Program-made: the position numbers and the translations under genes
Notes under the pieces: generated by a model
Told to the model about the DNA's origin: nothing
Seen by the model: only the letters and a program-made list of their open reading frames with translations
Databases searched by the model: none
DNA from: Armatimonadota bacterium
GTDB lineage: Bacteria; Armatimonadota; UBA5829; DTJY01
NCBI GenBank assembly: GCA_035686805.1
Contig: DASRZD010000208.1
Location: 1-42,304, forward strand
Length of the DNA stretch: 42,304 bases
Direction of reading: 5' to 3'
In this document: positions 7,438-38,819 of the stretch, one piece after another
Numbering within the stretch: position 1 is the stretch's first letter
Layout of the letters: every line of letters starts with the position of its first letter

Positions 7438-7465
7438 TTATACTCTAAAATCCGCCGGAGCCCAA
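7437..7465 (-). promoter_or_regulatory. Putative uvrB promoter (-35 TTGGGC, 17 nt, -10 TATAAT) overlapping the end of the upstream OMP gene
   Basis: Minus strand reads TTGGGC tccggcggattttagag TATAAT. The TAG stop of the 7445-9469 gene lies inside the spacer. Confidence 0.4.
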
Positions 7466-9469
7466 CTCAAACATGATCTTCTTCTGCGATTGCGACCATA
7501 CGGCGATCAGTTCTCTGTCACCCACCATATGCCCCAGCTCGACCTCCAGGTCGTTATACGAGAGAGTGCCGAAGTCGTTGTAGTACGACCGGAAGCCAAG
7601 TCGCCAATCCCGGTTCAAACGATAGCTGAGGTCGCCGAGGAGGTTAAGGGAACTGTAGTCCAGTCCCTTGATCGCATAGACCGAGGCCCGCCATTTCGCC
7701 CCGTCGCCGAGTCGAAGCAGCGCCGAAAGAGTCTGCCTCCTGGTCTCGAACACGGGAATGGGATTGATTACACTTGCGCTCGTCCTGGTATAGTACAGAT
7801 TCGGCCTGTCGCTAAACCGGTAGTTCAACTGGAAGTTGCTGTATTTGGCCAGTTTCCAGTCCAGCACGGCAGTCCCCTGGGTTGAAAGCCCCTGAATCTG
7901 CGGGTTCCCCCACACATAACCGAAGCCGGCAGAGGTTCGAAGTGACAGACTGTTGGCCAGATGCCACGGAGCAGAGTACATGTTGCCCTCCAGCCTCTGG
8001 TTGCTGTCTACGGTAGTCGTCGGCACAAAATCCGTTCCCGTATATCCTTCCGGAGCACTGGTATACGTGTAGGATCGGTTGAACCTGGTTGAAAGGTTAT
8101 ACCGAAGGCCGCTCTTCCCGACAGGCTTCGAGTTGGTCTGGACGACAAGATTGCCAATGATGGAACTCGTGCCCACGGATGGGTATTTGTTGCCGAACAA
8201 GTTGAGGCTCGTGCTGAAACCATTGAACGCCTTGTTCAGGGTCATATTGCCGTAGACGGATTGATGGGCCGCATAGTCGAGGTACATGTAGCCGCTCATT
8301 TGCTTTGCCAGGTTTTGGGAATGCGAGAAGCGCGCGCCCCAGTCATTATTCGTGACGCGGTTGAGCGTGAAGGTTCCTTGCGAGCGATCCGTCTGGTATT
8401 TCTCGCGAAGGTCTATGAACCATCCAGGCTTCTGGCCGTAACTCCCCCACCCCGTGCTTTCGCCATGACGCACCAGCAGCGCCCCGCTGGATCTGGGGCT
8501 GAGTGCGTAGTAGAAGGGCAGGTTCAACGTCAGGCCGCCCGTGCTGTATCCCACATACTGCTGCCCGTCCTCGGGAATTCCAGTCAGCGAGAGGACGTAG
8601 TTCGGCAGCGAGATCGTGCGCTTGGTCTCGAGATACACATTCGCCCGCTTGAATAGGATCTTATCATTGGGGAAGATGGTCGCGGACTTGGCCTTGACCA
8701 GGATTGCGCTGTCGGCGAGGTGCTTTATGTCAAACTCCTCTGGCGAATAGAAGGCCTCCTCTGAGCTGATCTTCGGCAGGCCTTTGGAGATATCCACAAC
8801 CTGCACGGCGCCCGTTTTCGCCGACAGGAGCAGCCCTCGGAAAGCCATGATGTCGCAGGAGAACATATTGCCCTCGATCATCCCGTCGGCAGTCTTGATC
8901 TTCACCGGATGGTCTCGATCCTGCCACCGGGCGACGATTCGTCCCCTGCCCAGGTCCACCTGCGCCTCGTAGGCCTCCAACTCAAGCGACCGATAGCGTA
9001 TCTTCACGTTGCCGAGCGCCTCCAGTACCTTGTGGTCAATGCTGTAGGCGACATAATCCTCGGCATTCACATCTATGTACTGAGGCCCTTTGATCGCGGC
9101 AGTTTCCTCACCGAAGTCCACATTGATCTGAGCGATGGCCTGCCCCTCGACCCAGCTTGCCGTTATGACGCAGGTCCCCGCAATATCGGCGCTGATGAGC
9201 TTGGCCCTCGCTGTGCCGGCCGATGTCGTTACCACATCTTCGATAACCCCGAGAGACGCGGTGAACCGGATCTCAGTCCCGTCCGGGACCAGGTTTCCGT
9301 CCTTGTCTCTCACCTCGGCGGTGATTGTGGCCAGACTCTTGCCGTCCGCCGCAATGGACCTGGGATTGGATGACAGGTCAATGCTGCCGACCCCTCGATC
9401 TGCTGCGAGTGGCCCGGCGATGGAGAAAACGAGGAGGCCGATTGCGGTGACCAATGCTTTTATGCGCAT
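7445..9469 (-). CDS. Outer-membrane protein: signal peptide + Big_1 (invasin/intimin-type Ig) domain + OstA/LptD-like N-domain + large beta-barrel (operon gene G)
   Basis: Signal peptide MRIKALVTAIGLLVFSIAGPLAA. Big_1-like SIAADGKSLATITAEVRDKDGNLVPDGTEIRFTAS...GTARAKLISADIAGTCVITASW. OstA-like LEALGNVKIRYRSLELEAYEAQVDL. About 400 aa of alternating Y/F/W/G/N-rich beta-strand sequence end in ...FELGSGGF, the terminal aromatic residue typical of OMPs. Confidence 0.7.
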   Translation of the reverse strand: MRIKALVTAIGLLVFSIAGPLAADRGVGSIDLSSNPRSIAADGKSLATITAEVRDKDGNLVPDGTEIRFTASLGVIEDVVTTSAGTARAKLISADIAGTCVITASWVEGQAIAQINVDFGEETAAIKGPQYIDVNAEDYVAYSIDHKVLEALGNVKIRYRSLELEAYEAQVDLGRGRIVARWQDRDHPVKIKTADGMIEGNMFSCDIMAFRGLLLSAKTGAVQVVDISKGLPKISSEEAFYSPEEFDIKHLADSAILVKAKSATIFPNDKILFKRANVYLETKRTISLPNYVLSLTGIPEDGQQYVGYSTGGLTLNLPFYYALSPRSSGALLVRHGESTGWGSYGQKPGWFIDLREKYQTDRSQGTFTLNRVTNNDWGARFSHSQNLAKQMSGYMYLDYAAHQSVYGNMTLNKAFNGFSTSLNLFGNKYPSVGTSSIIGNLVVQTNSKPVGKSGLRYNLSTRFNRSYTYTSAPEGYTGTDFVPTTTVDSNQRLEGNMYSAPWHLANSLSLRTSAGFGYVWGNPQIQGLSTQGTAVLDWKLAKYSNFQLNYRFSDRPNLYYTRTSASVINPIPVFETRRQTLSALLRLGDGAKWRASVYAIKGLDYSSLNLLGDLSYRLNRDWRLGFRSYYNDFGTLSYNDLEVELGHMVGDRELIAVWSQSQKKIMFELGSGGF

Positions 9470-9485
9470 AATCTCTAAGTAAAAT

Positions 9486-9520
9486 GGCCCGTGCCTGCCA
9501 CATGCGGCAGACTCCGGGCC
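9486..9520 (-). terminator. Strong GC-rich stem-loop between operon genes F and G (partial terminator, attenuator or mRNA-processing structure)
   Basis: Minus strand reads GGCCCG gagt CTGCC gcatgt GGCAG gca CGGGCC followed by AUUUUAC. The U-tract is short, so read-through is likely. Confidence 0.4.
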
Positions 9521-9549
9521 CCGATAATCTACGTTTCCTGACTAGCCTG

Positions 9550-10356
9550 TCACTTACCCCCGATGAGAAGCCCCAACAGGGCCGCCGCTATCATCGCCGG
9601 CAGCAAGCCCTTACCAGACTTGCGAGTCTCGGTCACGAACACGACCGGGTGGGCAGCAATATCCTCCTCTGCAGAATCAGCAACAACTACCTCCAGCGTG
9701 GCCTTGTTGATATCCGTCAGAAGCTTCTGTGCCAAATCGTAAGTCGCCGCAGTACCGATTGTCATCTCATTCGAATCGTCCATGGAAGCCTGTCCATTGG
9801 AAACGAACCTGTATAGCTCCTTGCCGCTGTTCACATCTATCAGCAGGAGCGTCGCCGACATGTCCACTTTCCCAGGGGCAGCCGGCTGCCCAGGACCGCT
9901 TTTCCCTGCCTCATACACATACTTATCTATGGAGCCTAGAATGGCCAACTGGCTTCCGGTGAACCTCGCCAACTTCAGCGCCCGAGCAGCACCCGCGGGA
10001 TCCGTATCGATCGCTGACACGATCTCCTTCTCGTCGCACTTCTGCTCCCTCACTGCGCGTTGAATGGAAGCTATTCGAGGCTGGAACTTGATTGCCGAGT
10101 AGGCTCTATTTGCGGCCACGCCCTCCGCAACGAGAGAGAACAAGTCCCTGGAAAACTGGGCTACGGCATCCGCTTGTGGACCAGGCTGCATGGCAGGCAC
10201 TGCCAATGGGAAAAGCATCAGTGACTTCTTTGTCGTCGGGAATTCCTGCCCGAACGCCGTCTGCCCCATAAGCAAAATGCAAAAACCAAGCAATAACCCG
10301 ACGCCAATTACCTTTGACCGCTTCAATATCCGACGCTCCTGTCTTGAGATGCTCAT
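9550..10356 (-). CDS. Secreted CsgG/LpoB/FlgO-superfamily-like protein with a C-terminal hydrophobic helix (operon gene F)
   Basis: Signal peptide ending ...LLMGQTAFGQE. Then SLMLFPLAV..., ...QLAILGSIDKYVYE..., and the C-terminus KGLLPAMIAAALLGLLIGGK. Paralogous to 10385-11212 and to the N-terminus of 23450-25429. The fold assignment is inferred from motif pattern only. Confidence 0.6.
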   Translation of the reverse strand: MSISRQERRILKRSKVIGVGLLLGFCILLMGQTAFGQEFPTTKKSLMLFPLAVPAMQPGPQADAVAQFSRDLFSLVAEGVAANRAYSAIKFQPRIASIQRAVREQKCDEKEIVSAIDTDPAGAARALKLARFTGSQLAILGSIDKYVYEAGKSGPGQPAAPGKVDMSATLLLIDVNSGKELYRFVSNGQASMDDSNEMTIGTAATYDLAQKLLTDINKATLEVVVADSAEEDIAAHPVVFVTETRKSGKGLLPAMIAAALLGLLIGGK

Positions 10357-10384
10357 CCTCGACTAGACACTCCCCTATTATACA

Positions 10385-11212
10385 TCAAAACGGCGGTGCT
10401 GGAGGAGTGTCATCAGTAACCGGCGCAGTTCCCGACCCGCCGCTTCCACCACCGGATCCGCTGAGTAGTAATCCAACCCCCAGCGAAAGCATCAATGCCG
10501 GAATCCACGATTTCTTGCTCGACTTTTCTGATTTCACTATGATTGTTCGGATCGGTTGAGGCGCTTGATACTCGTCTCCCGTTATCCCTTTGATCAGCTT
10601 TCGCCCTGCATCTTCTATGGCGGCCGTTCTGACCTTCGCCTCACCTACGCCCGTGTCACCTGCGGCCCGCACGGCATGTCCCTCGAACGGAATATCCCTG
10701 ATGGCCCTTCCCACTCTCCCATCGAGAAGCCTGACCTTCCCGGTGACATCGGCTGTTCCCGCTGTGCCGTTGAACACATACCTGTCCACAGAGCCTACGA
10801 TCAGGATGTTGGCAGACATCGCCTTCGCGAGCATTACCGCTCGGCCAATGGCCGCTTCGTCCGCGGCGAAGGGGCCCTGAGTGGCCGTCTTCTTGTCAGG
10901 CTGCAGCAAGACCAGCCGCTGAACGGCCGGAAGCCGCTCTGAAAACGCTACCGCGCGAAATCTCGGGCTGACGGAGAGCCCATCCCTTAGGAATAAGTTC
11001 AGCTCCGGCACAACCTTCGAATCACCCACCCCCGCCCCCGAATCCAGCGGGAACACGACTATGGACTGGGGTACCGATTCTACTCTCTGGGCTGCAAACG
11101 CCCCTGCAGAGAGATACGGCACTGCCACTATGCTGATCATCAGCCAGGCTAGATATCTATACGCTCGCAGCTTGACCATTGTTTGCATCTGAGTTGCCTC
11201 TTTCTTCAGCAC
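10385..11212 (-). CDS. Secreted CsgG/LpoB/FlgO-superfamily-like protein with a C-terminal hydrophobic helix and Gly/Pro tail (operon gene E)
   Basis: The GTG start overlaps the stop of the giant gene (TAGTG); an alternative ATG lies at 11188 after GAGG. Signal peptide ...LSAGAFAAQ. Then SIVVFPLDSG..., ...ANILIVGSVDRYVFN..., the helix WIPALMLSLGVGLLLSG, and the tail SGGGSGGSGTAPVTDDTPPAPPF. Confidence 0.6.
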   Translation of the reverse strand: MLKKEATQMQTMVKLRAYRYLAWLMISIVAVPYLSAGAFAAQRVESVPQSIVVFPLDSGAGVGDSKVVPELNLFLRDGLSVSPRFRAVAFSERLPAVQRLVLLQPDKKTATQGPFAADEAAIGRAVMLAKAMSANILIVGSVDRYVFNGTAGTADVTGKVRLLDGRVGRAIRDIPFEGHAVRAAGDTGVGEAKVRTAAIEDAGRKLIKGITGDEYQAPQPIRTIIVKSEKSSKKSWIPALMLSLGVGLLLSGSGGGSGGSGTAPVTDDTPPAPPF

Positions 11213-14200
11213 TACTTGTTCAGGTAGTCTATGCGGAATGATCTACTCGCGCCACCCGCATCTGCCCTGAACCGGTATGAGCCTCCAGGAATGATGACCA
11301 CTGACTTGTTCTCTGCAAGGTCCACGAGTACCAGCTTGACATTCGTGGGCACATCCTCGAGGTCGCTCCATTCCAACACGACCTCGCCTTCCCGGTCAGT
11401 ATTCACATTGAACTGCCAGGAATCGCCTACTGACAGGTTGCCTTTGAGATCCGAAGCGTACATCCCGTTCTTGCTATCGGTGAAGTATAGATCCACGAAT
11501 CCCTCGAAACAACCGGGACTCTCAATGCGCTCGTCACCTAACCGGCTTGCGCCGAAGTAATTGTACTGATCCTTGAGCTGACCATTCCGGGCAGTGATCC
11601 TGACCTCCCACTTGGCGGCGCTCATAGGGACGCTCTGTATCTCCTTTTCCATGCTGGATGCGGCGAGATCGCCGCTCACACTCCGGAAGCCGGGGATCAC
11701 CAATGTGCAGTTCACGTTGGCTTTCAGCCAGTATCCCTTCCACGGTATCAGCGTGTCGCTGCTGGATGCTCTTACGAGATTGTAGTTGCCTGTACCCTTG
11801 TCATACATCCAGCCGTAGTCCTTTATCCAGCCACTGGCGGCTGCTGTTGCCAGACTGACGTTGTTCGTCACCCCGCCCGAGGTATACTTGACCCTCAGAG
11901 CGCTCCAGTTCACTTCACGGGTGAATGGACAACCAATCTGATTCCAGCCCGCCCCCAGAGGAATGTTGTAGTCCTGGGTATCGTCCACCAGTATTCCTGC
12001 CGGCGCAATCACTTTCGATTCCAGCGTCTTTATCCAGTATCCCTGGCCGGTAGCGATTGCAGGGAAGTCATAGTCGGTCCTGATCCCCGGCAGCAGAGAA
12101 TACAGCTTGTAGTCTTTCTTCGCAGGCAGCCACTTCGCTAGCGCGAATGGCGGATTTGCCCCGAAGACGCCGTCCGGGAAGATGCTGATACCGGTTAGAG
12201 GTATCGAGATCATATCCAGACCGCTTACCGTGGTTGACGGACCTGTCACGGTAAATGACCTGACGAGTGAATTACTCACCTTGTACTGGCTGTTTCCGGG
12301 CCATGACGCCATCACCGACCACACGCCGGTAACCTTGGGTGTCCAGGCGTATTGATAGTAACCGTCTGCACCTGAATGCACAGTCACGTTGGTTGTTGCG
12401 CTGCCCCCTGGCTTCGTCACCGCGAGAGTCAAGTCAACCGACAGGGGCACATTGCCATAGCCCTTGATGTACCCGGCGGCAGTTACCTCCTGGCCTGCCA
12501 CGGAATTCGTCATGGCATTCAGCGTGATGTTTGCCGAACCTCGTTCCTCAACAACCGGAACGCCGTTCACCGTTGCAGTAGTCACCTCTGTCAGCCAGTC
12601 CGAAGCCTTGAAGAAGTAGGAGTGCGTCCCTGCGTCAAGCTCATTCGTGACGAACTCGTATTGAACTCCACTCGCATAGTCATCAGACGGAAGGACCTTC
12701 TCCATCTTATGCGCACTCGTCAGGCCCGCTCCATCAATGTATACTTCGACAAACTCAGGCTCATCATTGTCGGGGTCATCCTTGTAAGTGACCTGGTACG
12801 TGTAGGCATCCAGGTCATAACCCGAAGTGGGCGTCACACTGCCATTGAGCAACTTCGGCCATCCGGCGGTGTTGGCATGTACATCAGGCCCACTGATCTC
12901 CACGATCGGCGTGGGAGGAAGCGAGCTGGTAGAGTTCTTAACTGGATCCGGTGCATTCGGATCTGCCGCCTGGGCTTCCTCCATGTCCCGAACGTCCTGG
13001 TCGTACCAGGCGTATCCGTAGCCGTCGGTGGCCTCGAAGTAGAATTTATGCGGACCTACGGTCAGAGCATTCTTGCTCGTCGGATACGAGTACACGACAC
13101 CATTTGTGTAGTCTGCGCCCGGCACCGGAACGCTGATCTCCACAGGCGCGTTGCTGTCAATATACAGCTTGATCGAAGCCGGCAGATTGCCGTCCGGATC
13201 CGCGTATTTCACCTTATACTCGTAGACTCGGCCGGAATTCCCCGTGGTAGGTGTGACCAGACCACCGGTCAGTATCGGGGGCCTGCTGATGTAGGCCGTG
13301 AAGTTTGTTGACGACGGCAGTCTCACTATATACCATCCGTCCGAGGCCTCGAAGTAGAATTGATGAGCGCCCACCGTACTCAGGCTCATTGTGTAGGAAA
13401 ACTCGACGCCGAGCGAATACAACGGCGCTGGATCGCTGGTGGACATGGGATATGTCTTCCATACGCCCGGAGTCTCTTCGATAACGAGGTTTATGTAGCC
13501 GACTACCTGTCCGTTCGAGCTGGGTGGATCCCCATTCTCGTCCGTATAAGTCACCGCAAATCGGAACGGTGTGCCTGCCGTGCCCGTCTCAGGTGTTGAG
13601 CCGCCGCTGGTCAGGGTAGGCGCAACGTTCCCCGGCGGTGCGTCTTGTGTAACGACAGGGCCGGCCATGTCACCCGTTGACGGGTATCTGAGAGTATAGT
13701 CCTCAGTCTGACCTGGCATGATCTGTTCCGTCGTGACCGCTTTGAAGTGCGCCTCGTGCGTCCCCATACCGAGAGACGGCACTTTGGCCTTGTAGATCAC
13801 ACCACCTATGTCACTGTAGACCTGATCCGTCTCATCCAGCTTACTCATCAGCAGCTTGCCTATGGTGAACTCGCTGCCGGCTGGGACCATGCTGGCCAGG
13901 TCGGATGTCACCAGAGTAAGGGTGTCAGTCGTGTTCGACAGGATCTTGTATACAATGCGCTGGCTTGTCCCTGCCAGTGTGATCTGGACCGGCATACCGG
14001 CGAACTGGTCCGGTATCCAGTTCTCACTCGGGTTGCTGCTCTTAATGGTGTTGTCAGTGACGGCCAGTGCGGTTCCATTCCAATCGATTCCATCCGGATT
14101 ATCCACGTAGACTACCGGATAGCCCGTATTCGGCGCCTCATTATCATTGTCGCGATATGTGATCGAGTAGGTGATCGCCTGAGTGGTAGTCACGCTCCCC

Positions 14201-17200
14201 GCAGGATTTATCATCGGCGACGTGAACGTCGGCCGGTCGTTGACATACGGACCTTGTATCGGATCAATCGCTGTGGTACTCGGATCGGCCTCAAATACCG
14301 CCAAGGCCGAGCCGTCCGACGCCTCGAAGTAGAAGGAGTGATTCCCGCTGGTAAGATGCATGGAATGGGTATAAGTGACCCCTTCCCTGTACGTGTCGCT
14401 TCCCGTGGCATTCGTCATCGGAAGGGTCTTCCCATCAATGATCGCATTTACGAAGTTGGGTCGCTGGTCATCGAGGTCCTTGTAGGACACGGTGTAAACG
14501 AAGTTGGTCGAACTCTGACCCTTGGCAGGCGCCACCTGGCCGTCATACAACTGAGGCTCGTTATTGCCGCCAACCGCCAGCGGGCCCGTGGCCCCCGGCT
14601 CCGAGCCGAACCAATATTGTGAGGATATCGGCAGAGTAGGCGTGAAAGTCAGAGTGATCGATCCGGCAACGTTGTCAATCGTGTACAGAGTGCTGCTTAC
14701 CAGATTCGAGCCGTGGTAGATCAAAGGCGATGCGTAGTTTGTCTGGACCAGCAGATCCGCATTTGCCGGCACATCGGTGACAAGCGGATGATGCACGAAG
14801 TTGAAGATCTGCGGATTCGCCGTTGAAGTCAGCGTTTCGGCGCCAGGCAGGCTAATCTGCGGCTTCCATACCATGCCCGAGCTTGGGGACGTTGACACAT
14901 TGTAGTATGCCTCATCAACACCATCCGATGCCACAAAGCAGTGGTAATACTTCTTTGGCGTAGTGCTGTCGCCTGGCAGCCTGGTGGAGTAATAGAACTG
15001 AACACCCTTGTTATATACAGTGTCCTGATCATCCACTTGCTCTATCGTATGACCGCCGTCCCAAACGATGGGACCGCTCGGCGGGTTGTCCTGCCGGCCG
15101 ATGTATACCAGTTTGTAGTACGGCGGCTGGTTGTTCGCGTCGGTATACCAGACGTTGTAATTCCAGATGGTAGCCTCATTTGACGTGCCATCAGCCGATA
15201 TGACACTTCCGCTGGTGAGTCTGGGAGCGGTATTGTCGGTGATTTGGAAGCTGCCGGCCGGGCTGGTGCCGTTCGCCGGCGCATATACCGTTTCTCCGGC
15301 GATATTGTCATTGTTCTCGACCGGGCTACCCCAGTTATCGGTGAACGCGAATCTGTACTGCCTCTGGCCAACCTGCAGTCTCAGCCCAGGGGCGCTGGAC
15401 GTGTTCCATTCATAGATCACCCCATCCGAGTACAGCCGGGTAAGGTTATCGGCCGGGATACTGGGGTCATCCGGATTGGGCTTGGCTTTGTACATGCTCC
15501 CAGTGTAGGTATTACCAGCGTCATCGGTCTGAATGATGATATCCAGCCCCGGCACAGTCCCGGTGCCTGGGAAAGGCCGCTGGTTGTCGGCATCCTTATA
15601 GGTAATTCGGAACCGGAAGTTGGTGCCGGTTGGTCCGCTATTCGGGAAAACGCTCCATGAGTTGTTCACAAGCTCCGGCTTGGTGTTGATCCACGGGCCG
15701 TTGATAAGATCGTTGTCCACCGGAGTATTCTGATCGCCCAAATCAGGATTAGGCGACTTGTTGGGCAGGACAGTCTCATAGAAGACGCCGCCGTCGTACT
15801 CGGTGGCATCCATTCGCCTGGGATAGCGGCACACGTGGGCTTTCACAGTGGCCGTCCTGCCGTATCGCTCGTCCGTCCACTGCTGATCGGCCGCTTCAAA
15901 ATAGTAGCAGTGCGGCCCTTTCGTGAGCTGCGTGTATTGGCCTGGTTGCAGTAGAACCAAGCTCGGGAACGACAATCGGCATTCATAGGAGACGCCGGTC
16001 TTGTACACATCGTTTTGATACTCGTTACCGGTTACGCCCTGGCCTGGCGAGGGCTGCATGACGCTATATCCCCATGGCTGTCCGTCCTCGGCATTCCACC
16101 CGTTCTTGACATACAAGCGGACGTAACTGGGAGCGATACCCGCTGACTGCCAGTAATTCACCTTGAACGTAAACACGTCGTGATCTGTACCGCCCGCGCT
16201 CTCCGCCCAGAGCCTCATATCGGAATAATCCTGACCAGGTACCGACGGAATCACGGCTTTCTTGTACGGAGACAGGGTGCCGAGGAATCTCTCACCGCCT
16301 GCCAGGCCGCTGATCTCGAACAGGCCGGGGTTAACCACCGGGAACGTGAATGCCTGATAGTCGACGGTTACGCCATCCAACCACCGCGTGACGCTAGGTT
16401 CCGTACTTTCTCCGACCCATGAGTCATACGGATACCCGGATGCCCATGCGCCCGGCATATAGGTCTGTTTGTCTACGTAACTCCCCGGACGTACGGCGCC
16501 CGCATCGTAGAATCTGGCTGTGTTATCTATAACGCCCCATCCCCAGAGCAGTGGCCACGTCGGCTCAGATATTCCGGATGTCCCCTCAACATAACAAACG
16601 TATTTATGGCCATTCGTAACCGTGGGTACCACGAAATCACCGAGGTAATAATGCGTCGAAGCTGTCCAGGTAGTGGCGCTTGGCGGACTGTCGAACGAGA
16701 GGGCCCTCTTGTAGTTGATCCCATCGGCATAGTCGAACAGGAAATCATGCGGCGCAGGCGCCGTCGGGAGTGGAGGCGTCTCCTCCAGTTGCGGCCAGAC
16801 TGTATTCTTCATGTTGTCAATTGCCCACGCGGAGTAGTCGTCATCCGAACAGGCAAAGTAATACTCGTATCGTCCGGGCGGAAGTGCCTCATAATAATGG
16901 TTGGTTTCATACGTGCTCGCCCACGTAGTATTCCAATGATCGCTGCTCGTCTTGATCAGACCGCCGGTGGTCGGCCCAACCCTAAGGACATAGTCTATCG
17001 GTACAGTCGAGTCATGGTAGTTGCCAGTCTCGTCCTTCTCCTTGTACATGTGGTGACCATGGAAGTATTTCCAGTACTGCTGCTCCGGTACGTACATCTG
17101 CCCGTCCCAGACCAAGGTGGTTGGCAGATTTGCCCAGTCGAGATTGCGGAGGTATAACATCACTCCACTCTCCAGAGTCGTATAGTTCCAGGTGTCATTC

Positions 17201-18021: not shown

Positions 18022-18067
18022 TCGGATATACCCCCTCGTTGACCACATTTTCTTAATATCAAGGCTT

Positions 18068-20209
18068 CTACGGTCCCGAAGGAGGACCGCCTCCACCATC
18101 GATCGGAACCCCGCCCAATGCGGCGCCGATCTGAGAAGAAGGACTTATCGTCATTGTGACCTCAGGCTGCAGAGCCCGGATCCAATAGCCTTGCCATGGT
18201 TTAAGCTGCACTGACCGGTCTGATGACCAGCGGTATTGCCGGCGTGCTGGGTCCCACCAGAAGACCGTACTGCTGATGAGGCCGCGACTCAGCGCCTCAT
18301 CGTAGTCCATAGCTCCATATTGCCTGTTATAGAATGTAACCTCCCCCAGGGTAACCGTGTACAGGAAGGGATTCCCCACCAGATTCCATCCGGTGGAGAG
18401 GTCTACGTTATATCCCTGCGTGCCTGCCCAGGTAACCGGGGTATAGGTCCCTGAGACCATTGACGTCCTTTGCGCCGTACTTAGCTTCAGCCAATACGCC
18501 TTGCCCGGCAACACCTCAGAGACAGCCTTGTACTGCCGAGCATGAGGATCATACTCCCAGAACACACCGCCGGCGAGGCCCAGCAAAGACCCGGGGTCTG
18601 GGTTGGTCACATAGAATGGGACGGATATCATCTGCCATCCCGCGGATAGCGGCTGCCACTCTGTAGCCGCGATATTCACCTTTCGCTTGACACTAGTACC
18701 TCCCACGGGCGCTGCCGAATACAACACCGAGTACTCCATGATGCCTGTAGGATAGTTCACCGGCTTCACTTTCCACGAGACGCTCGATTCCGAATCAGCG
18801 TTGATCCTGGAGAACGCCTTCGTATACTTGCCGCCTTCCGATTCATCGAGGGTGAGGCCCGAAGGCAGAGTGAGGGTGAAGCTCGGATTCAGCAAATCGA
18901 CGCTCTTTGCCGTGTTGTATATGTAGGCGGTGATATCGAAGGGGTTGGGATCCAGAGCCCCCGTGCCGGAATCCGAATAGTAGTTCAAAACCCGCGGACC
19001 CTGAACGGCCGCCACGTACTGAGGACCGGACTCCCCCTCCTTTAATCCAAGATTCGGCTTTGTGAAATCCGACGAGGCGCACGCCAAACCGATGTAGTGG
19101 ATAAACGTGATACTCTGGCCGGCAGGCAGCCGCCGAGGTCTCCAGACTGTGCCGTAACTAAGGTCGTCTATGTATTGATGCAACGTCGGCGTCGGAAAGA
19201 TCCAGTGAACATACGGATCAGACTCTCTGCCGGTGAAGTCATACCAGTAGGTGAACATGTCCCCCGCCATAGGGAGCCAGTCATGTATCCCCAGTCTGTC
19301 TGGAGGGGTGGCCCCCTGTTCCTTCATAGTTATACGGAATCCCACTGAGGGGTCAGCCTGCGAATTGTAGAATTCCAAGAGAGAAGGAATGCGCCTCTTG
19401 GAGGTCGAATCATCGTCGGCCATTACCGTTTGATCCACGATCAACGGATAACCAGGTGCACTTACGACGTTGCGAAGATCCCTCGTACCCTCGTCCTCGG
19501 GGTTCGTGACCACGTCGGCGTAGTCCCGCAAGCCTACGTAGTGGTCATAGCCGTCCTCATTCGTAAACTTCCATTTAAACCGAACGGTGTCTCTCAGCAA
19601 CCGGATCTCCAGATCACACCGAATCCCAACGGGGGCCACCGGGCTCACCGAGCCTCCGGTTATAAGGGAAACCCCACCCGTAGGAGTGGGATACCATGTC
19701 GCCAGGATCGTGTTCGGGAGGGTACTGGGAGTGTACGGCCAAATGTACCAATCGCCGTCCAGAATGTCACCCAGCATTGCGGACATCCCGCCTCTCGCAA
19801 AGGTTGCCCATACTCGCTCTATGCTATCAGCATCAGTGGTATAGGAGTCAACCGTCAACTGGAATGCGCCCCACTTGTCTCCGGGGCCCGGAGGCGGATA
19901 GAGTTCAGAGAAATTGAAGTACTGGCCGTCATCCTGGAGTGTGGTCGGATCTCCTCCCGTGCACCAGATATGGAAACGCCCACCCGCGGGCTGACCGCCC
20001 TGGAGAGCATGCACAGGCGAGGGTATACCCCACTTGCCGTACAAGCCGAGTCCTACGCCCAGATAGCCGTTCTGCAGGCTGATGCAGAAAGGAAACCAGT
20101 CATCAGTATTGTCATCACTCTGCGCAGCGGCAGGCGGCCCAAAGAATAGACTGGCCACGATCAGTGACGCCACTACAAGCTGGAATGATCTCAAAATGAA
20201 CTTAGACAC
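18068..20209 (-). CDS. Secreted 713-aa protein with an unknown N-terminal domain, a CARDB/NEW3-like Ig domain and the Trp-rich shared module (operon gene C)
   Basis: GTG start 4 nt after GAAGGAGG. Signal peptide ...LFFGPPAAAQS. C-terminal module GWQMISVPF...GKAYWLKL...GWNLVGNPF...LKPWQGYWIRAL, followed by the tail GGGGPPSGP. Confidence 0.8.
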   Translation of the reverse strand: MSKFILRSFQLVVASLIVASLFFGPPAAAQSDDNTDDWFPFCISLQNGYLGVGLGLYGKWGIPSPVHALQGGQPAGGRFHIWCTGGDPTTLQDDGQYFNFSELYPPPGPGDKWGAFQLTVDSYTTDADSIERVWATFARGGMSAMLGDILDGDWYIWPYTPSTLPNTILATWYPTPTGGVSLITGGSVSPVAPVGIRCDLEIRLLRDTVRFKWKFTNEDGYDHYVGLRDYADVVTNPEDEGTRDLRNVVSAPGYPLIVDQTVMADDDSTSKRRIPSLLEFYNSQADPSVGFRITMKEQGATPPDRLGIHDWLPMAGDMFTYWYDFTGRESDPYVHWIFPTPTLHQYIDDLSYGTVWRPRRLPAGQSITFIHYIGLACASSDFTKPNLGLKEGESGPQYVAAVQGPRVLNYYSDSGTGALDPNPFDITAYIYNTAKSVDLLNPSFTLTLPSGLTLDESEGGKYTKAFSRINADSESSVSWKVKPVNYPTGIMEYSVLYSAAPVGGTSVKRKVNIAATEWQPLSAGWQMISVPFYVTNPDPGSLLGLAGGVFWEYDPHARQYKAVSEVLPGKAYWLKLSTAQRTSMVSGTYTPVTWAGTQGYNVDLSTGWNLVGNPFLYTVTLGEVTFYNRQYGAMDYDEALSRGLISSTVFWWDPARRQYRWSSDRSVQLKPWQGYWIRALQPEVTMTISPSSQIGAALGGVPIDGGGGPPSGP

Positions 20210-20234
20210 TTTGCCTCCTTCGGCGCATTACGGC

Positions 20235-23200
20235 TCACTGCACCACACCGGTGTACGGATTGGGCGCCACGATAAGCTTTACGTCTGCCGGCCGCACCGG
20301 GACCGGCTGAACCCTGAAGTAGTCCCAAGAACAATCGAGCATGCCGTCGTTAATCAGCCAGAATGATCCCGGCTCTTGGAAGCTATCATCCTCTAACTCC
20401 CAATCGGCTACATCGCCGCGACCAGGGAATGTGCCGACCTTCACCTTGATGTGAGACTTGTTAGCAGGCATTGGACTAGTCGTAGCTCCAACGGCTGTTA
20501 TAGTTATGTAGTAGGCTGATCCGCTTGCAAGACTATTCATGACCTGTTTGCTTTGAATGACCAGCCCATTGTCGCTTCGGCGCAATGATATCGTCGAGGG
20601 CGAGTCCCCCGCTCTGAACGCCAAAGCATATCCTATTCCGGTAGCACTCGCCCGGAATCTGAGCTCGGCGTTAGCCGGACCGCCTGGCACGGTTGGCGCG
20701 GAATTGTCTAGAACTAGTCTTGCGCTGACTGTAAAATCGCCGTAAATCGGGAAATCCTTGTTCGTCACATATGTATACGATGGCGAATTGGGGATCCCGC
20801 CAAGCCTCAACATGTCGCCTGATTCGAGTACCGAGCCGTTTGTATTCCCCACATACCACGTCGGCTCAGGATCATCCTGGTCTATAACGCCATCGCTGAA
20901 CTCGTCGGCCCAGGCTGCAAAAGTGGATGGAGTCAGATCCGGCGTTTTCACCTTCACCCTGATCCATTCGCCTTCCCAGGGCATCATCACCGCCGTGCTC
21001 ACATCCTTCCACGTGTATCTTCGATAGAAACTGTCATAGCGGAAAACAGAGTTGGAGATCCATCCCCTGGCAGCAGCTTCCGTGGCGCCAATTCTTTCTC
21101 CGGCATATTCCACGATCACGTTGGACCAGGTGACGGGGAACGCGAACGGATCGCCGACTATGTTCCAACCGGAGTAGAGGCTGATGATGTATGGAGCTTG
21201 TTCTACCGAGTCTCCATATCCGTCAGGAACGGTGACGTTAGAGCCCGTAGGCAGATAGAGCCAGTACCCAAGCCCTGCGGGTGGCGTGCCCTTGGAGCCG
21301 CCAAGCGGCTGCACCAGCCAATTCGCGTAGGCGCTTGTGGGAGTGAAAGTGGCCTCATCATCTGACCGGCTGCCATCCAGACTGTATAGCGCATACTCCC
21401 CACTGGAACTATTCGTATAATGCCACCGAGCCAGCACACCGCTATTCCCCATGATCTCTTCCGGTTTCTTCGGTTCCACGAAATTGAAGGGGACTGCGAA
21501 GAGCTTCCAACCGGATCCCAGCGTCGCTGGATTGAGCTTGAAACTGGTGATATCCGAAGGAGGAGGCGGAGGTACATCCAGTGTCATATCCGTCCCAGCG
21601 GTCACGTAGATTGTGTGCGTCCCATTCACCGCCAATCCCGGCTTCACGGTATATTCGAACAGAAGATACCTCTTGCCCGAAGCCTCGTCGAGGGTATACA
21701 GGTAGTCCTGCCAGTTTGCGATCTCGGGACTCGGGCCTCCCATGGTAGGCTGATTGTCCGGAACGCCGTCTCCGGTAGTATCCACGCCGTCTATCCAGAC
21801 GCGAATGGTGTCCAGCTTGGCATGTCTGAGGTTGATCCGGAACCTCGGCCTGGTCGTCCTGACCACCGCACCCTTCGCAGGCGAAACAATCTCCACATCC
21901 ACCGATGCTTTTGCCAGGGCGCCATAGACATTCAATAAACCCCAGCCATATGTATCGTTCGGATGGCCTATTCCCCTCGGCGTCGCAGTCTCATAGAGCA
22001 ACGGCTTGACATCCTCGGGCGGAACGCCATGGGATATCAACAGGGCTGCTGCTGCGGCAACGCAAGGCGATGCCATAGAAGTGCCTGGCATGTAAGTGAA
22101 TATGTTGCCATATTTGTCAGGCCACGTCGGCATTGGATCAGGTTGGGGCCAGTCAATTGCATTCGGCGAGTAGGATGTCGGTGTGGGGGGCGTATCGGTC
22201 TCCGTGTCTACGGTTGCAAGATACTTGTACCAGGCAGTGCTCAGAATGTACCAACCGGGGGCGGCAATGTCCAACGCCGGGCCGTGCTGAGAGAAGTCGG
22301 TTATGGTGTCGTCATACTGAGTCGCGCCTACGCAGATGCTCGCGGCATAGGCCGACGGATAACAGGGAGCATAAGCCCCATATTCCCACTCATTGCCGGC
22401 CGCGCACACTACCACAATTCCCTGGCTTACCGCCTGCTTTATGGCGGATTCCTCTTCCTCAACGCGCATGAAATAATGCCCCATACTCATGTTTATTACA
22501 TTGACCTTTATGGGCTTGCCATCCAACGTAGTGCCGCCGCGCCACGCCATTGCGAGATATATAGCATCTATCTCGTCCGCCACATTGCCTGCCCCGGTGT
22601 CTTTAAAGACCTTGAACGGAAGGATCTGCACATTATCCCACGCCAGGCCGGCAACTCCTATCCAGTTGTTCGCCTGGGCCGCGATGATGCCGGCAACGTG
22701 AGTCCCATGCTCCGGAACCCTATTGATTGGCGTTATAGGTTTCTCGCTCGGTGCCGGTCCGGGATTTTCACCATCTTCTCCCGCATCCGCCACGTCATAT
22801 CCATGCAGCACCCGACCCTGAAGATCGGGATGGATGATTCGGGTCAGTCTTCCTTCCTCGTTGTAGAACGTGCGATCCCTTACTCCGGTATCTATGACGG
22901 CGACAACTATCCCTTCAGCGCCTTTCTCCACATCCCAGGCCTCGGGGGCGAAGATATGCATGTTCGGTCCCCAAAGCTGCCATTGCCCAGTCAGGAATAA
23001 CTCGCCTGTGGGATCAGGGTTTATCATCCCATATTGATGGTAGAACTCATCATTCGGTTCCACACTGGGATAGATGTAGTAGTTGCGGCTCAGAGATTTG
23101 ACAACAGGATACGAAGCCAGAATCGAACCCTCGTTATTGAGGAACGTATCAACAGGCGTACCGGTTCCAGGCAGCTCAAGGACCCATGTGTGGCTATACT

Positions 23201-23426
23201 GGGGCTTTCGAACTATCTTCGCCCCATATCGGTCCATCAGGCCCTTTAGATCTGCTTCAGTCTTTCCTGGCGCCAACGTCACGAGCACCTGATTTGGCGG
23301 ATAGGCAGGCCCGTCCGCGTGCAGGGGACCCATCCTCTCGAAGCCGAACCCTGCGGCCGAGCATAGGATGAGCGCCATGAAGACTAGCGCGCCCAATCTT
23401 AGATGCCTGATCGAATACGTTCCCAT
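20235..23426 (-). CDS. Subtilisin-family (S8) serine protease with I9-like propeptide, one D-type Ig repeat, the Trp-rich shared module and a LamG/jellyroll-like C-terminal domain (operon gene B)
   Basis: Signal peptide, then a propeptide-like VLVTLAPGKTEADLKGLMDRYGAKIV. Catalytic triad motifs are VAVIDTGV (D179), HGTHVAG (H240) and GTSMASP (S450), with the oxyanion AAGNE. AAGGAGG RBS. Confidence 0.9.
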   Translation of the reverse strand: MGTYSIRHLRLGALVFMALILCSAAGFGFERMGPLHADGPAYPPNQVLVTLAPGKTEADLKGLMDRYGAKIVRKPQYSHTWVLELPGTGTPVDTFLNNEGSILASYPVVKSLSRNYYIYPSVEPNDEFYHQYGMINPDPTGELFLTGQWQLWGPNMHIFAPEAWDVEKGAEGIVVAVIDTGVRDRTFYNEEGRLTRIIHPDLQGRVLHGYDVADAGEDGENPGPAPSEKPITPINRVPEHGTHVAGIIAAQANNWIGVAGLAWDNVQILPFKVFKDTGAGNVADEIDAIYLAMAWRGGTTLDGKPIKVNVINMSMGHYFMRVEEEESAIKQAVSQGIVVVCAAGNEWEYGAYAPCYPSAYAASICVGATQYDDTITDFSQHGPALDIAAPGWYILSTAWYKYLATVDTETDTPPTPTSYSPNAIDWPQPDPMPTWPDKYGNIFTYMPGTSMASPCVAAAAALLISHGVPPEDVKPLLYETATPRGIGHPNDTYGWGLLNVYGALAKASVDVEIVSPAKGAVVRTTRPRFRINLRHAKLDTIRVWIDGVDTTGDGVPDNQPTMGGPSPEIANWQDYLYTLDEASGKRYLLFEYTVKPGLAVNGTHTIYVTAGTDMTLDVPPPPPSDITSFKLNPATLGSGWKLFAVPFNFVEPKKPEEIMGNSGVLARWHYTNSSSGEYALYSLDGSRSDDEATFTPTSAYANWLVQPLGGSKGTPPAGLGYWLYLPTGSNVTVPDGYGDSVEQAPYIISLYSGWNIVGDPFAFPVTWSNVIVEYAGERIGATEAAARGWISNSVFRYDSFYRRYTWKDVSTAVMMPWEGEWIRVKVKTPDLTPSTFAAWADEFSDGVIDQDDPEPTWYVGNTNGSVLESGDMLRLGGIPNSPSYTYVTNKDFPIYGDFTVSARLVLDNSAPTVPGGPANAELRFRASATGIGYALAFRAGDSPSTISLRRSDNGLVIQSKQVMNSLASGSAYYITITAVGATTSPMPANKSHIKVKVGTFPGRGDVADWELEDDSFQEPGSFWLINDGMLDCSWDYFRVQPVPVRPADVKLIVAPNPYTGVVQ

Positions 23427-23449
23427 TGAAATACCTCCTTGACTTTAGC

Positions 23450-25429
23450 CTATAGAGAAGGCGGTGACGGCGGTGTGTTGCCTCCGTTGTCGCCTCCATC
23501 ACTGTCGGGAGGCGGTTCTGGCATGTCAGGCAGAGTCATGAATGAGTAGTACTGGTTCATATCACAGTACATGTATCTGGTGTTCTTCGGCCCATCCACC
23601 TGAGGCGAGGGGCCGGCCGGATAGGGTCCCGGCGCGTCCGTCCTATTTCTTGCGCCTACACGCCAGTAGAGCGTACCCCCCGCAAGGACATTCGCCAATT
23701 CGGCAACCGTTGTTCCCGAATCCGCGTCCCTCAACGTGTAGGTTTTCGTAAACAACTGCAGATCAGCGGGAGTCGGCTGGTAGACCACGTCTACCCATGT
23801 CTCATCTCGTTTGAAGTCCGGGGTCGGGGAGACTTCGATCACATATTGATCGGCCCCTGCGCAACCTCTCCAACTGAAGGTGACATTGCTAAGATCCACA
23901 TACTCAGACGCCACAATGCCCCCCGGAGCATCACATTCCGGACGTCTCAGGTATGTCGCGCGTCCCGCATACGAGCCCTGAGTCTCCCAGTACGTGACAA
24001 CGGCCGCACCTTCGTTATCGGTGCCATGCCTCCTGTATACGCATGTGACCCAGTATTGATGAGGAGTTCCCACACTCAGTCCGGTCTGCACATAATGCCT
24101 GCTATCCAGATCAGTATGATCGGAGCTTGGGACAACGTAGTCGAAACCCGGATCTCGGGCGTACGTATCATCTATGGTGGAGTGGTCATAACTGCCAATC
24201 GCCCCGCTGATTCCAACCGCGGTTACCGGATCATTATTGATTACCGGGCCGCAGTTCACGTTGTCTCCCGAACCATATTGGGACGTGATGCTACCGAGAT
24301 TATCACGCCACACGTGGAATTCAATAATGTCCGTTGCACGCACACCTTTCGGCGTATTCCAAGCAACCAATATGCCACCGTTGCTCCAGGGCGAAACCAC
24401 GTCAGGTGTCTTGCCGGCCATTGCGACGGTGCCGGGCACACCTTCCGCTTGCTCTCCGCCACCCTTGAAGAGCGTCGCCAGGCCCACCAGTGCAATGAGC
24501 CCCCAGAGCAGCTTCCCGCCTTTTGCGATCCTATTCTTGCTTTCCAGAGGTTTGGCCTGTGCCTTCCCTGTCTCCAGAGGCAGTTCATAGACAGCCCTGA
24601 CTCGGTCCTCGGGTTTCAGACCTCGGGTTGTGCTGACCACCGTTCCGTGCGAATCGTTATCGCCGAGCTTGGTAATCTTTATGCGCCCCACTACTTCGTC
24701 TTCGCCCGTCTCACTTCGCCGGAGAGCAATCATCTCCATGCCGGACTTGATCCCCTCCTGTGCGCCCTTATTCAGCAGCACTTCGGTGGGGCTGAAAGTC
24801 CCGATGATCGTAGCCTCCGGGATAATGTACTGCACCATGCTCTCCACGGCCTGACGGGCTGCATCATTGATTGCCTCGATGATGAGATCAGTGTCCTTAT
24901 CGGCGCTGTATCCGATCCGCGGATTACTCATTCCTATGGCGATCGCTCCATTTGACCACTCGCCGGATGCCACGTGAAGCGTCCGAACGACCAGGCGAAC
25001 CTCGGCTTTCTTCTTGCCGCTGTCCACTTTGATCGAGGTAATCTCCCCGTGAACGACACCGTCAACGCCGCCAAGCTCCTGGCCAAGACGAACCATCATT
25101 GACGGCGTCATGGCGACTTTCAGCGTCCGATCTTCCTTTGACTTATACCCCAGCGCCTCCATCGCAGCCTGCAGGCCGTCGGCCGGAGTGACGCCAAACT
25201 TCCCGGATCGGAGAAGCTCCACTACTACGGCGTCAGTCGCCATGGTGCCAAACATCTCATTCGGCATCTTACTGTTGTTCCGGAAGTCCACTACGGCGAC
25301 CTCAATGGTGCCGGCCTGGGCTAACGCCGGAAGCGGAGTGAGGACTGTGCCGATTATGGGACTCATGAATGAAACTATGCAGAACACGCTTATCGGCCAA
25401 CGTGCCGCACATCTTCTGAACGATCGCAC
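23450..25429 (-). CDS. Secreted multidomain protein: CsgG/LpoB-like domain + small beta-barrel domain + hydrophobic helix + two FN3-like domains + Pro/Gly tail (operon gene A)
   Basis: GTG start 9 nt after AGGAGG. Signal peptide ...LPALAQA. Then IEVAVVDFRNNS...TDAVVVELLRSGKFGV...VDGVVHGEITSIKVD, the helix LLWGLIALVGLATLF (aa ~307-321), FN3-like ILVAWNTP...EFHVWRD and VTFSWRG...YVIEVSP...LYWRVGARN, and the tail PEPPPDSDGGDNGGNTPPSPPSL. Confidence 0.8.
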   Translation of the reverse strand: MRSFRRCAARWPISVFCIVSFMSPIIGTVLTPLPALAQAGTIEVAVVDFRNNSKMPNEMFGTMATDAVVVELLRSGKFGVTPADGLQAAMEALGYKSKEDRTLKVAMTPSMMVRLGQELGGVDGVVHGEITSIKVDSGKKKAEVRLVVRTLHVASGEWSNGAIAIGMSNPRIGYSADKDTDLIIEAINDAARQAVESMVQYIIPEATIIGTFSPTEVLLNKGAQEGIKSGMEMIALRRSETGEDEVVGRIKITKLGDNDSHGTVVSTTRGLKPEDRVRAVYELPLETGKAQAKPLESKNRIAKGGKLLWGLIALVGLATLFKGGGEQAEGVPGTVAMAGKTPDVVSPWSNGGILVAWNTPKGVRATDIIEFHVWRDNLGSITSQYGSGDNVNCGPVINNDPVTAVGISGAIGSYDHSTIDDTYARDPGFDYVVPSSDHTDLDSRHYVQTGLSVGTPHQYWVTCVYRRHGTDNEGAAVVTYWETQGSYAGRATYLRRPECDAPGGIVASEYVDLSNVTFSWRGCAGADQYVIEVSPTPDFKRDETWVDVVYQPTPADLQLFTKTYTLRDADSGTTVAELANVLAGGTLYWRVGARNRTDAPGPYPAGPSPQVDGPKNTRYMYCDMNQYYSFMTLPDMPEPPPDSDGGDNGGNTPPSPPSL

Positions 25430-25762
25430 TAGAGTAATTCCTCCTAGGATGGTCTCCTTACCTTAGACGTATGCATAACGAGCGAAAAAGCTCTATCTTT
25501 GCCAAGCTGATCTGGTTACCACAGGCATGGGGGAGACGATAGCGCAGATTCTTCCCTGTCGCATAAAAGCCGGGGCTTCCCCAATGCAGCTCAAAAAGAA
25601 AGGCATAATACTGCAGATAATCCTCTTCGGACAATGCCGACGGGCCTTGGATGCCAAGCCCTCCGTGACCGTCATCTGCCCCGTTACAATAAGCTGGTTC
25701 TCCACACTATTTACTGGTCTCACCAGTAGCCCACGCCCGTCCATCGGGAAAAGGCCAGCGCA

Positions 25763-25791
25763 ATTATAGCATAGTGGTAGGGGTTACGCAA
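25763..25791 (-). promoter_or_regulatory. Putative promoter of the seven-gene operon (-35 TTGCGT, 17 nt, extended -10 TGcTATAAT)
   Basis: Minus strand reads TTGCGT aacccctaccactatgc TATAAT. The -35 overlaps the coaE stop. This leaves a ~330-nt leader before the GTG at 25429. Confidence 0.45.
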
Positions 25792-31947: not shown

Positions 31948-32034
31948 GCCGAAGTGGCGGAATTGGTAGACGCGCCGGTCTCAAAATCCGGAGAGGGCAA
32001 CCTCGTGTCGGTTCGAGTCCGACCTTCGGCACCA
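31948..32034 (+). tRNA. tRNA-Leu (anticodon CAA), class II with long variable arm, encoded CCA
   Basis: GCCGAAG-TG-GCGGAATTGGTAGACGC-G-CCGGT-CTCAAAA-TCCGG-AGAGGGCAACCTCGTG-TCGGTTCGAGTCCGA-CCTTCGGC-ACCA. It aligns position by position with the E. coli tRNA-Leu layout as I recall it. There is a single U-U at pair 31-39. Confidence 0.93.
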
Positions 32035-38693: not shown

Positions 38694-38732
38694 CAAACAA
38701 AAAACCCGCGGGTATCAGATTAGTCCCGCAGG
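38694..38732 (-). terminator. Intrinsic terminator inside the CDF gene leader (or 3' end of an sRNA)
   Basis: Minus strand reads CUGCGGG acuaaucugaua CCCGCGG UUUUUUGUUUG. An upstream GCAGG-AUGAA-CCUGC hairpin competes for the left arm. The ATG lies 16 nt beyond the U-tract. Confidence 0.7.
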
Positions 38733-38819
38733 TTCATCCTGCTGCTCAGAGAGCCCGGCACCATCCGTTATGGATCGCCTGGTCTAGCCATGTCTAGACT
38801 GTTGAGCTTGTCTGAATGC

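Follow-up and report, generated by a model that had tools for sequence, protein, structure and literature searches.

The closest described counterparts of the genes analysed here form the outer-membrane translocon for lipopolysaccharide (LPS), LptD–LptE. The prolines of the first-strand region of LptD are thought to loosen the seam between barrel strands β1 and β26 for lateral release of LPS. A second precedent is BB0838 of Borrelia burgdorferi, an LptD homolog that is needed for surface lipoproteins, a cargo other than LPS (bioRxiv 10.1101/2022.12.21.521298). The placement of LPS and surface proteins in the outer membrane of Terrabacteria diderms is an open question, and LptD and LptE were not found in diderm Firmicutes by Antunes et al. 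(PMC5007114). Armatimonadota are diderm, as seen by cryo-electron tomography (PMC11535203), and encode lipid A synthesis and BamA (PMC4072686, PMC5629042, PMC5007114). No LptD is named for this phylum in the literature we searched. We analysed a stretch of 42,304 nucleotides from an Armatimonadota bacterium (contig DASRZD010000208.1 of assembly GCA_035686805.1), called the window below, in which seven consecutive minus-strand open reading frames (ORFs), A to G, run from 25429 to 7445 by ORF reading of the window. The surroundings are housekeeping genes, with coaE, rpsA and polA upstream and uvrA and uvrB downstream. An earlier note, made from the sequence alone, had proposed an undescribed system for exporting or anchoring surface proteins. 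That is borne out insofar as the operon is conserved, all its products are exported, and no paper describing it turned up in the literature searched, but G proves to be a remote homolog of LptD. What the operon encodes is probably a known machine in its Armatimonadota form rather than a wholly new secretion pathway, and we tentatively read the locus as an LptDE-like outer-membrane translocon that most likely serves LPS and is encoded together with envelope proteins.

G (7445–9469, minus strand, 674 aa) was modelled with AlphaFold2 on a 43-sequence alignment (predicted local distance difference test score, pLDDT, 77.8). A domain match gives a Big_1/Invasin_D3 Ig domain at aa 30–119 (window 9113–9382), and the model has its Ig domain at aa 29–120. 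In the model, this is followed by an OstA-type jellyroll of ten strands at aa 132–238 (8756–9076) and a barrel of 24–26 strands at aa 256–674 (7448–8704) that ends in a C-terminal Phe, all encoded on the minus strand. The earlier note had read the same three parts from the sequence, correctly as it turns out. In a Foldseek search of the PDB with the model, the first 15 matches are all full-length LptD, at E values from 1e-15 to 1e-10; next come the usher FimD (3.5e-8) and then TonB-dependent receptors (about 1e-5). Independently of the model, the G-family profile matches Neisseria gonorrhoeae LptD by sequence with E = 3.3e-6, and the profile alignment spans the jellyroll and continues into the first barrel strands (β1–β3). 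The family-invariant motifs SLP289NY and NLP318FYYALSP of G pair with TPWADFPL and VPYYFNLAP of LptD, the residues concerned being P289 and P318/Y320/Y321.

Standard models detect this relationship in a minority of the family. Pfam LptD_N is matched by 5 of the 43 G-family members (best 3.7e-5) and LptC by one, and the window's own G has no Pfam match to the LptD_N jellyroll family. The NCBIfam models for LptA, LptC and LptD give weak matches in a few members (one for LptD, at 0.069). Databases label the G homologs "invasin domain 3-containing" or "Ig-like domain-containing protein". The interdomain cysteines of LptD are absent from G, whose only cysteines are C100 and C205. We accordingly take G to be a genuine member of the LptD family, though a very divergent one, to which a Big_1 domain has been added at the N-terminus.

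Small alpha/beta proteins that may be partners of G are encoded in the same operon. The longest ORF of E (10385–11212, minus strand) is 275 aa, but the likelier start is the ATG at codon 9 (position 11188), which lies behind AAGAGG and gives a protein of 267 aa, the length of the E homologs. The model of E (pLDDT 77.7) contains an alpha/beta domain at aa 49–211 with the PelC/CsgG/TolB-N fold. PelC is the best structural match (TM-score 0.65–0.70), followed by CsgG (E = 8e-7), FlgT, the TolB N-domain, GNA1162 and CT253, and PelC and FlgT are also the best, if weak, matches of E among PDB sequences. Weak Pfam matches in the E family go to CsgG (6 of 26 members, best 5e-4), DUF3280 (5 of 26) and LptE (4 of 26, best 2e-4). 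F (9550–10356, minus strand, 268 aa) has a domain of the same fold and is a paralog of E (BLASTP 5e-14). A (23450–25429, minus strand, 659 aa) begins with an LpoB/TolB-N/CsgG-fold domain, detected by profile at about aa 39–200. Pairwise BLAST of this domain against E and F found nothing; when family profiles are compared, homology with the E family does emerge over the first ~200 residues of the A family (hhalign 95.7%, E = 9.4e-9). E and F are thus, as had been proposed, short paralogs of the N-domain of A.

The window's A stays under the Pfam cut-offs for both LpoB (16.5 bits, cut-off 22.3) and CsgG (13.8 bits, cut-off 20.8). Its orthologs do better: among the loci recovered in our searches, which carry L numbers here, those in L018 and L019 pass LpoB with 24.8 and 24.9 bits, and the one in L015 alone passes CsgG with 25.1 bits. 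Behind this domain, A has a small beta domain (about aa 205–285), for which orthologs show weak similarity to the MreC barrel and FlgT_C, then a hydrophobic helix flanked by basic residues (aa 305–323, window 24461–24517, minus strand, read from the sequence), and finally a beta-rich, Cys-containing C-terminal half of about 310 aa that runs out in a Pro-rich tail. The A-family profile has no matches in the PDB. The CsgG/LpoB-like domain and the helix of the earlier note are therefore confirmed, the former through the orthologs, while its two FN3-like domains are not: Pfam fn3 has no match in A or in three A orthologs, and hhalign of the C-terminal half with a genuine fn3 array gives E = 0.087. 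Three closer identities were considered for these proteins and rejected. A is not an LpoB ortholog, scoring 21.8 against the 110.6 of the NCBIfam LpoB equivalog and not being a lipoprotein. Neither A nor E is a CsgG channel proper, since the window's A and the E family are sub-threshold and have no lipobox, and the kinship is at the level of the fold superfamily only. E and F agree with PelC in fold, but they have no lipobox and there are no pel genes nearby.

In place of a lipid, A, E and F have a helix of a recurrent type. In E, the sequence KSSKKSW and a hydrophobic helix (aa 236–252, window 10457–10507, minus strand) are followed by a Gly/Ser linker and a Pro-rich tail ending in Phe; the C-terminal hydrophobic helix of F is at aa 250–266 (9559–9609, minus strand), and the protein ends in GGK. 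The common layout is a basic patch, a Gly/Ala/Leu-rich helix of 17–19 residues and a Gly-rich linker, after which 2 to 962 more residues follow. It is found in seven proteins of five loci, namely A, E and F and four relatives outside the window (L014 7892–9919, L015 726–2753, L016 6161–9793 and L021 4840–7011), and each of the five loci also has a G-family gene. Where domains downstream of the anchor can be identified, they are of extracytoplasmic type: five fn3 domains in the L016 protein and three Big_1 domains in that of L014. The 207-aa E/F-type orthologs of L009 and L019 do not have the helix. In several proteins, matches to the NCBIfam "lipo-invert C-terminal anchoring domain" fall on the helix element at 14–15 bits, under the cut-off of 37, and are taken as a lead only; no paper on this model was found in the literature searched. 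Exported-type domains lie on either side of the one helix, whose positive charges are on the exported side. That is a poor fit to an inner-membrane stop-transfer anchor, and this topology, as predicted from sequence, suggests an outer-membrane location.

The cluster recurs in about 12 independent Armatimonadota loci. A single-sequence search with G gave only Big_1 matches in Bacteroidales, and the loci were reached by way of alignments, a closer G alignment leading to four and an A-family alignment to six. The named G homologs are all from Armatimonadota, as is the single named C homolog, and the A-family loci are from Armatimonadota or unclassified bacterial metagenome-assembled genomes (MAGs). 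No cultured species carrying the cluster was recovered in the locus searches. The complete order coaE-A-B-C-D-E-F-G(-uvrB) is found again in L017 and L018, and the G-side part, C-D-E-F-G-uvrB, is present in L008, L010 and L012. Conservation of the gene order, which the earlier note had named as a check, is real but not universal. Variants occur in L009, L013, L019, L021, L023, L025 and L026, where the identity of C or G falls as low as 27–30%. One small E/F-type protein takes the place of two in L009 and L019; D-like, E-like and G genes stand together in L013; the cluster is reduced to A, a module protein and G in L021 and rearranged in L025, which has no C, and L026; and D is missing from an otherwise complete cluster in L023, which speaks against functional coupling. 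In L020 and L022, G is solitary, with no cluster around it. The L022 cluster is dispersed, judging by a neighbour-joining tree in which its G copy groups beside a cluster-linked ortholog and is not a paralog. As an aside, uvrB of L009 (14077–16073) is called as two ORFs of 371 and 172 aa in a long-read MAG, probably through a frameshift or assembly error rather than as a real pseudogene.

The unrelated coaE and uvrB flanks are kept alongside the cluster in most loci. Since these genes are conserved there though unrelated, synteny alone is weak evidence for shared function, and the more telling cases are those in which the flanks are gone. The deep G clade P0092 (L015) has no coaE or uvrB flanks, and the neighbours of its G are a full-length A ortholog (A-family hidden Markov model, HMM, E = 3e-40, with the same internal helix), a weakly E-like protein and a 1725-aa secreted protein. 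In L016, the gene preceding G encodes an E-type domain, the helix and five genuine fn3 domains (Pfam 1e-34). The G gene of the deep clade P0101 (L014) adjoins a protein in which a small domain and a hydrophobic helix stand between the signal peptide and the three Big_1 domains. These flank-independent recurrences in three deep G clades argue for a functional coupling of G with helix-anchored or giant secreted proteins. Downstream of the G homolog of L016 there is also a 304-aa signal-peptide protein (11953–12867) with weak matches to outer-membrane barrels of FadL/TraF type, which is absent from the window's cluster.

From the gene structure, homologies, folds and conservation established here, we infer how the parts may work together. 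If G works as LptD does, its cargo would be hydrophobic and lipid-anchored. It would move along the jellyroll in the periplasm and then exit sideways, by the seam where the first and last strands meet, to reach the outer leaflet, its hydrophilic part passing through the lumen. The most likely cargo would be the organism's own LPS. E, F and the N-domain of A may dock at the periplasmic mouth of G or within its lumen, as non-lipoprotein stand-ins for partners of the LptE/PelC type, with a short Gly/Ala-rich helix as their anchor in place of the N-terminal lipid. B, C and D would be co-expressed envelope or surface proteins, linked to G probably by co-assembly of the surface layer and not by passage through it. 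Because G is a true LptD homolog and the phylum makes lipid A, the scenario of a housekeeping LptD with LptE-type partners leads, though unproven, and G is the only LPS-translocon candidate seen so far among the loci analysed.

We regard this LPS translocon as quite possible and no more than that, as several observations weigh against it. The Foldseek TM-scores of G to LptD are low (0.31–0.40), and the Pfam model for the LptD C-terminal part (PF04453) is unmatched in all 43 G-family members. LptA docks on the jellyroll side of LptD, which is where G carries its Ig domain. LptE is not among the top 50 structural matches of E, to which PelC, CsgG and TolB-N are nearer, and E, F and A, being without a lipobox, are not lipoproteins as LptE is. 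One Armatimonadota genome of 2.44 Mb has two G-family genes from different deep clades (L009 10001–11923 and L014 10001–12031), which is unusual for a housekeeping LPS translocon; the second of these lies outside the cluster, beside the helix-anchored protein with three Big_1 domains. Nor does LPS transport explain why, in deep clades and without the flanks, G is still linked to giant secreted proteins.

The main rival reading is a protein-display translocon. G-family barrels might, instead of or besides LPS, move helix-anchored proteins to the surface, in the manner of BB0838. The helix of A, E, F and their relatives would then act as a lipid anchor and leave via the lateral gate, the lumen would let the Ig-like C-terminal domains through, and the PelC-like N-domain would stay in the periplasm, with B, C and D binding to, or being processed on, the resulting surface scaffold. 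The anchor element fits such a role in its constant company with G-family genes, in the fn3 and Big_1 domains that follow it in L016 and L014, and in a topology and charge distribution that suit an inner-membrane stop-transfer anchor poorly; the "lipo-invert" matches on the helix region are repeated, if weak and sub-threshold. G paralogs are paired with different helix-anchored Ig-domain proteins, the linkage outlasts loss of the flanking genes (L015, L016), and there is the precedent for an LptD cargo other than LPS (bioRxiv 10.1101/2022.12.21.521298). We nevertheless think display unlikely. Some E/F-type orthologs are helix-free (L009, L019), and G can be solitary (L020, L022). B, C and D have neither the anchor helix nor a lipobox, and the module common to them is generic and archaeal too. 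The phylum also requires an LPS translocon, for which G is the sole candidate seen so far. The proposal in its full form, that G-family barrels of a Terrabacteria diderm insert and display peptide-helix-anchored proteins in the outer membrane and that the Ig-like ectodomains of these organise the module-bearing B, C and D, we consider rather unlikely.

The genes might also form no functional unit at all, but an inherited block of unrelated envelope genes between coaE and uvrB, in which G acts on its own and B, C and D would be no more than common secreted enzymes or adhesins. The retention of coaE and uvrB in most loci shows that local synteny persists here without functional coupling, L023 has no D and L025 no C, G stands alone in L020 and L022, and in E. 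coli lptD and lptE themselves are unlinked. What makes an inherited block improbable is that the genes are separated by gaps of 23–80 nt with no convincing internal terminators, that the set of A-type protein, giant protein and G-type barrel reappears in other contexts and deep clades with shuffled domains (L015, L016, L021), and that A, E and F are mutually homologous and always near G. Finally, E, F and A could form a periplasmic ring of the PelC/CsgG type that funnels a polymer, or unfolded C and D, through G. The superposition of E on the PelC dodecamer and on CsgG and the above-threshold CsgG match of the L015 A ortholog would suit a Pel- or curli-like exporter. Such export is very improbable, however, as the cluster has no glycosyltransferase, PelB-like TPR or curlin-type genes, G has the jellyroll and gate motifs of LptD and is not a porin of the PelB/AlgE type, and the E domain is without the transmembrane hairpins of CsgG, as far as the model shows.

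All seven of the tightly spaced minus-strand genes described in the earlier note were found as ORFs. Their spacing had been given as −1 to 80 nt. With the longest ORFs, the gaps from A to G are 23, 25, −32, −1, 28 and 80 nt, so both of those values occur, but C and D overlap by more (−32 nt); with the likelier starts of D and E, they become 23, 25, 46, 23, 28 and 80 nt. Ribosome-binding sites of GGAGG type, attributed earlier to most of the genes, are strong before A, B and C (AGGAGG/AAGGAGG type) and weaker before D, E and F, and inspection of the sequence upstream of the G start found none. Type I (Sec) signal peptides, recognised by their basic n-region, hydrophobic core and AxA-like site, are present on seven of seven products, in full agreement with the earlier reading, and on inspection of the N-termini, a lipobox is absent from every one of them. 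Seven secreted proteins in a row would occur by chance with a probability of about 6e-5, assuming that about 25% of proteins are secreted.

The gap of 354 nt between coaE and A opens, directly after the coaE stop codon, with an extended −10 promoter-like element read from the sequence, TGCTATAAT (25763–25771, minus strand). In four diverged loci, between which protein identity drops to about 30%, the element, given as TGCTATAAT or as TGCTATA, does not vary, while the remainder of the leader is little conserved across the loci compared. The implied 5′ leader of about 327 nt agrees with the promoter and leader of roughly 330 nt that had been noticed before. A generic scan for promoters and terminators performed at chance level, and only the conserved element was kept. 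A riboswitch or attenuator in the leader was ruled out, with no Rfam match and folding no better than that of shuffled sequence (z = 0.61).

B (20235–23426, minus strand, 1063 aa) is, by its sequence, a secreted S8 subtilase with an intact catalytic triad. The catalytic domain (aa 171–496) matches PF00082 at 1.1e-48, with D179, H240 and S450 in canonical motifs, and many subtilisin structures in the PDB match B. The S8 assignment of the earlier note is thereby secured, whereas the propeptide it described has only a weak, sub-threshold match of fervidolysin type. After an Ig-like linker and before a lineage-specific C-terminal domain, B has a Trp-rich module (aa 624–836, window 20919–21557, minus strand). 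C (18068–20209, minus strand, 713 aa) carries the same module at aa 512–692 (18134–18676, minus strand); its N-terminal ~500 aa have no detectable relatives outside their own family and no PDB or Pfam match even with a 19-sequence profile. The longest ORF of D (11212–18099, minus strand) is 2295 aa, and the likelier start is the ATG of codon 27 at 18021, preceded by GAGGGGG, which gives 2269 aa. D contains an array of at least eight repeats of about 100 aa each (aa 634–1841, window 12577–16200, minus strand) with the signature F.F.v.Y.D.D...P ... G.H.YyF.A.DG, which has no Pfam, NCBIfam or PDB match. The claim that B shares this Ig repeat did not survive: seven D repeats were made into an HMM, which picks out eight or more strong units in D and none in B. 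The Trp-rich module of D (aa 1950–2140, window 11680–12252, minus strand) precedes a C-terminal beta domain.

The sharing of the Trp-rich module by B, C and D, which the earlier note had also recognised, is firm (E = 5e-15, 1e-6 and 6e-11), with the motifs GWN.vG.PF and PW.GyWi. It is covered by neither Pfam nor NCBIfam. An exhaustive profile search recovers 7077 cluster representatives at E ≤ 1e-3 and 1719 at E ≤ 1e-10. Large proteins with CARDB, Big, fn3 or FlgD_ig domains often have the module at their C-terminal end, and besides bacterial MAGs it occurs in archaea, in CARDB proteins of Bathyarchaeia and Archaeoglobaceae. This breadth, together with the archaeal occurrence, rules out the module as a dedicated sorting signal for G, and with it the cargo tag that had been imagined for it; to judge from its distribution, it is a generic, undescribed extracellular domain.

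Elsewhere in the window, Rfam matches a NiCo (nickel/cobalt) riboswitch above its gathering score at 38719–38796 on the minus strand, just upstream of a cation-efflux (CDF) gene (37820–38677). A single tRNA, tRNA-Leu(CAA) at 31948–32034, is among the few plus-strand features, the large genes of the window otherwise being all on the minus strand. From one end of the window to the other, cumulative GC skew declines steadily.

The locus provides a concrete LptD candidate for Armatimonadota, one missed by standard Pfam annotation. The non-lipoprotein family related to PelC and LptE, with its peculiar helix anchor, is a candidate replacement for LptE where the sorting of outer-membrane lipoproteins differs. 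Were display to be the true function, the mechanism of LptD would extend to helix-anchored proteins, in parallel with the lipoprotein flippase of Borrelia, and the helix would represent a new class of alpha-helical outer-membrane anchor. The Trp-rich module, being very large as a family and both bacterial and archaeal, deserves a family definition of its own.

Among known systems, the inverse autotransporters intimin and invasin resemble G in joining Big_1/Invasin_D3 Ig domains and an outer-membrane barrel in one polypeptide. In G, however, the order is reversed, the barrel has 24–26 strands rather than 12, a single Ig domain stands before a jellyroll, and neither a LysM domain nor a passenger array is present. 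PelC (of PelBC), CsgG (curli), FlgT (the Vibrio H-ring), LpoB and the TolB N-domain agree in fold with the E domain, whose TM-score to PelC reaches 0.70. All of these are periplasmic, and several are found near the outer membrane or form rings there. They differ in that A, E and F have no lipid anchor and adjoin no PelB, CsgA/F or flagellar genes, and A adds to the fold a helix and about 330 further residues. The C-terminal helix of Thermotoga Omp-alpha and the D4 helix of Wza are precedents for hydrophobic or amphipathic helices that, in place of a lipid or beta-barrel, anchor periplasmic proteins in the outer membrane. Their likeness to the A-type proteins is one of suggested topology.

BB0838 of Borrelia is, like G, a distant LptD, and G is likewise linked to anchored proteins with surface-type domains. 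Borrelia has no LPS, however, whereas Armatimonadota have lipid A synthesis genes, and its cargo is lipidated, whereas the candidate cargo here has a peptide helix and no lipobox. Compared with LptD–LptE of E. coli, Shigella and Neisseria (PDB 4q35, 5iv9 and 7omm), G has an extra N-terminal Big_1 domain, no PF04453 match and no interdomain cysteines. LptE is replaced by two or three paralogous partners that are not lipoproteins, have a C-terminal or internal helix and are nearer to PelC and CsgG; a subtilase and giant secreted proteins share the operon; and G has paralogs within one genome. What the two have in common is an OstA-type jellyroll followed by a very large barrel, Pro/Tyr motifs retained in the first strands of that barrel, and a gene close by for a small alpha/beta protein, the putative partner in the case of G, from the LptE/CsgG/LpoB superfamily.

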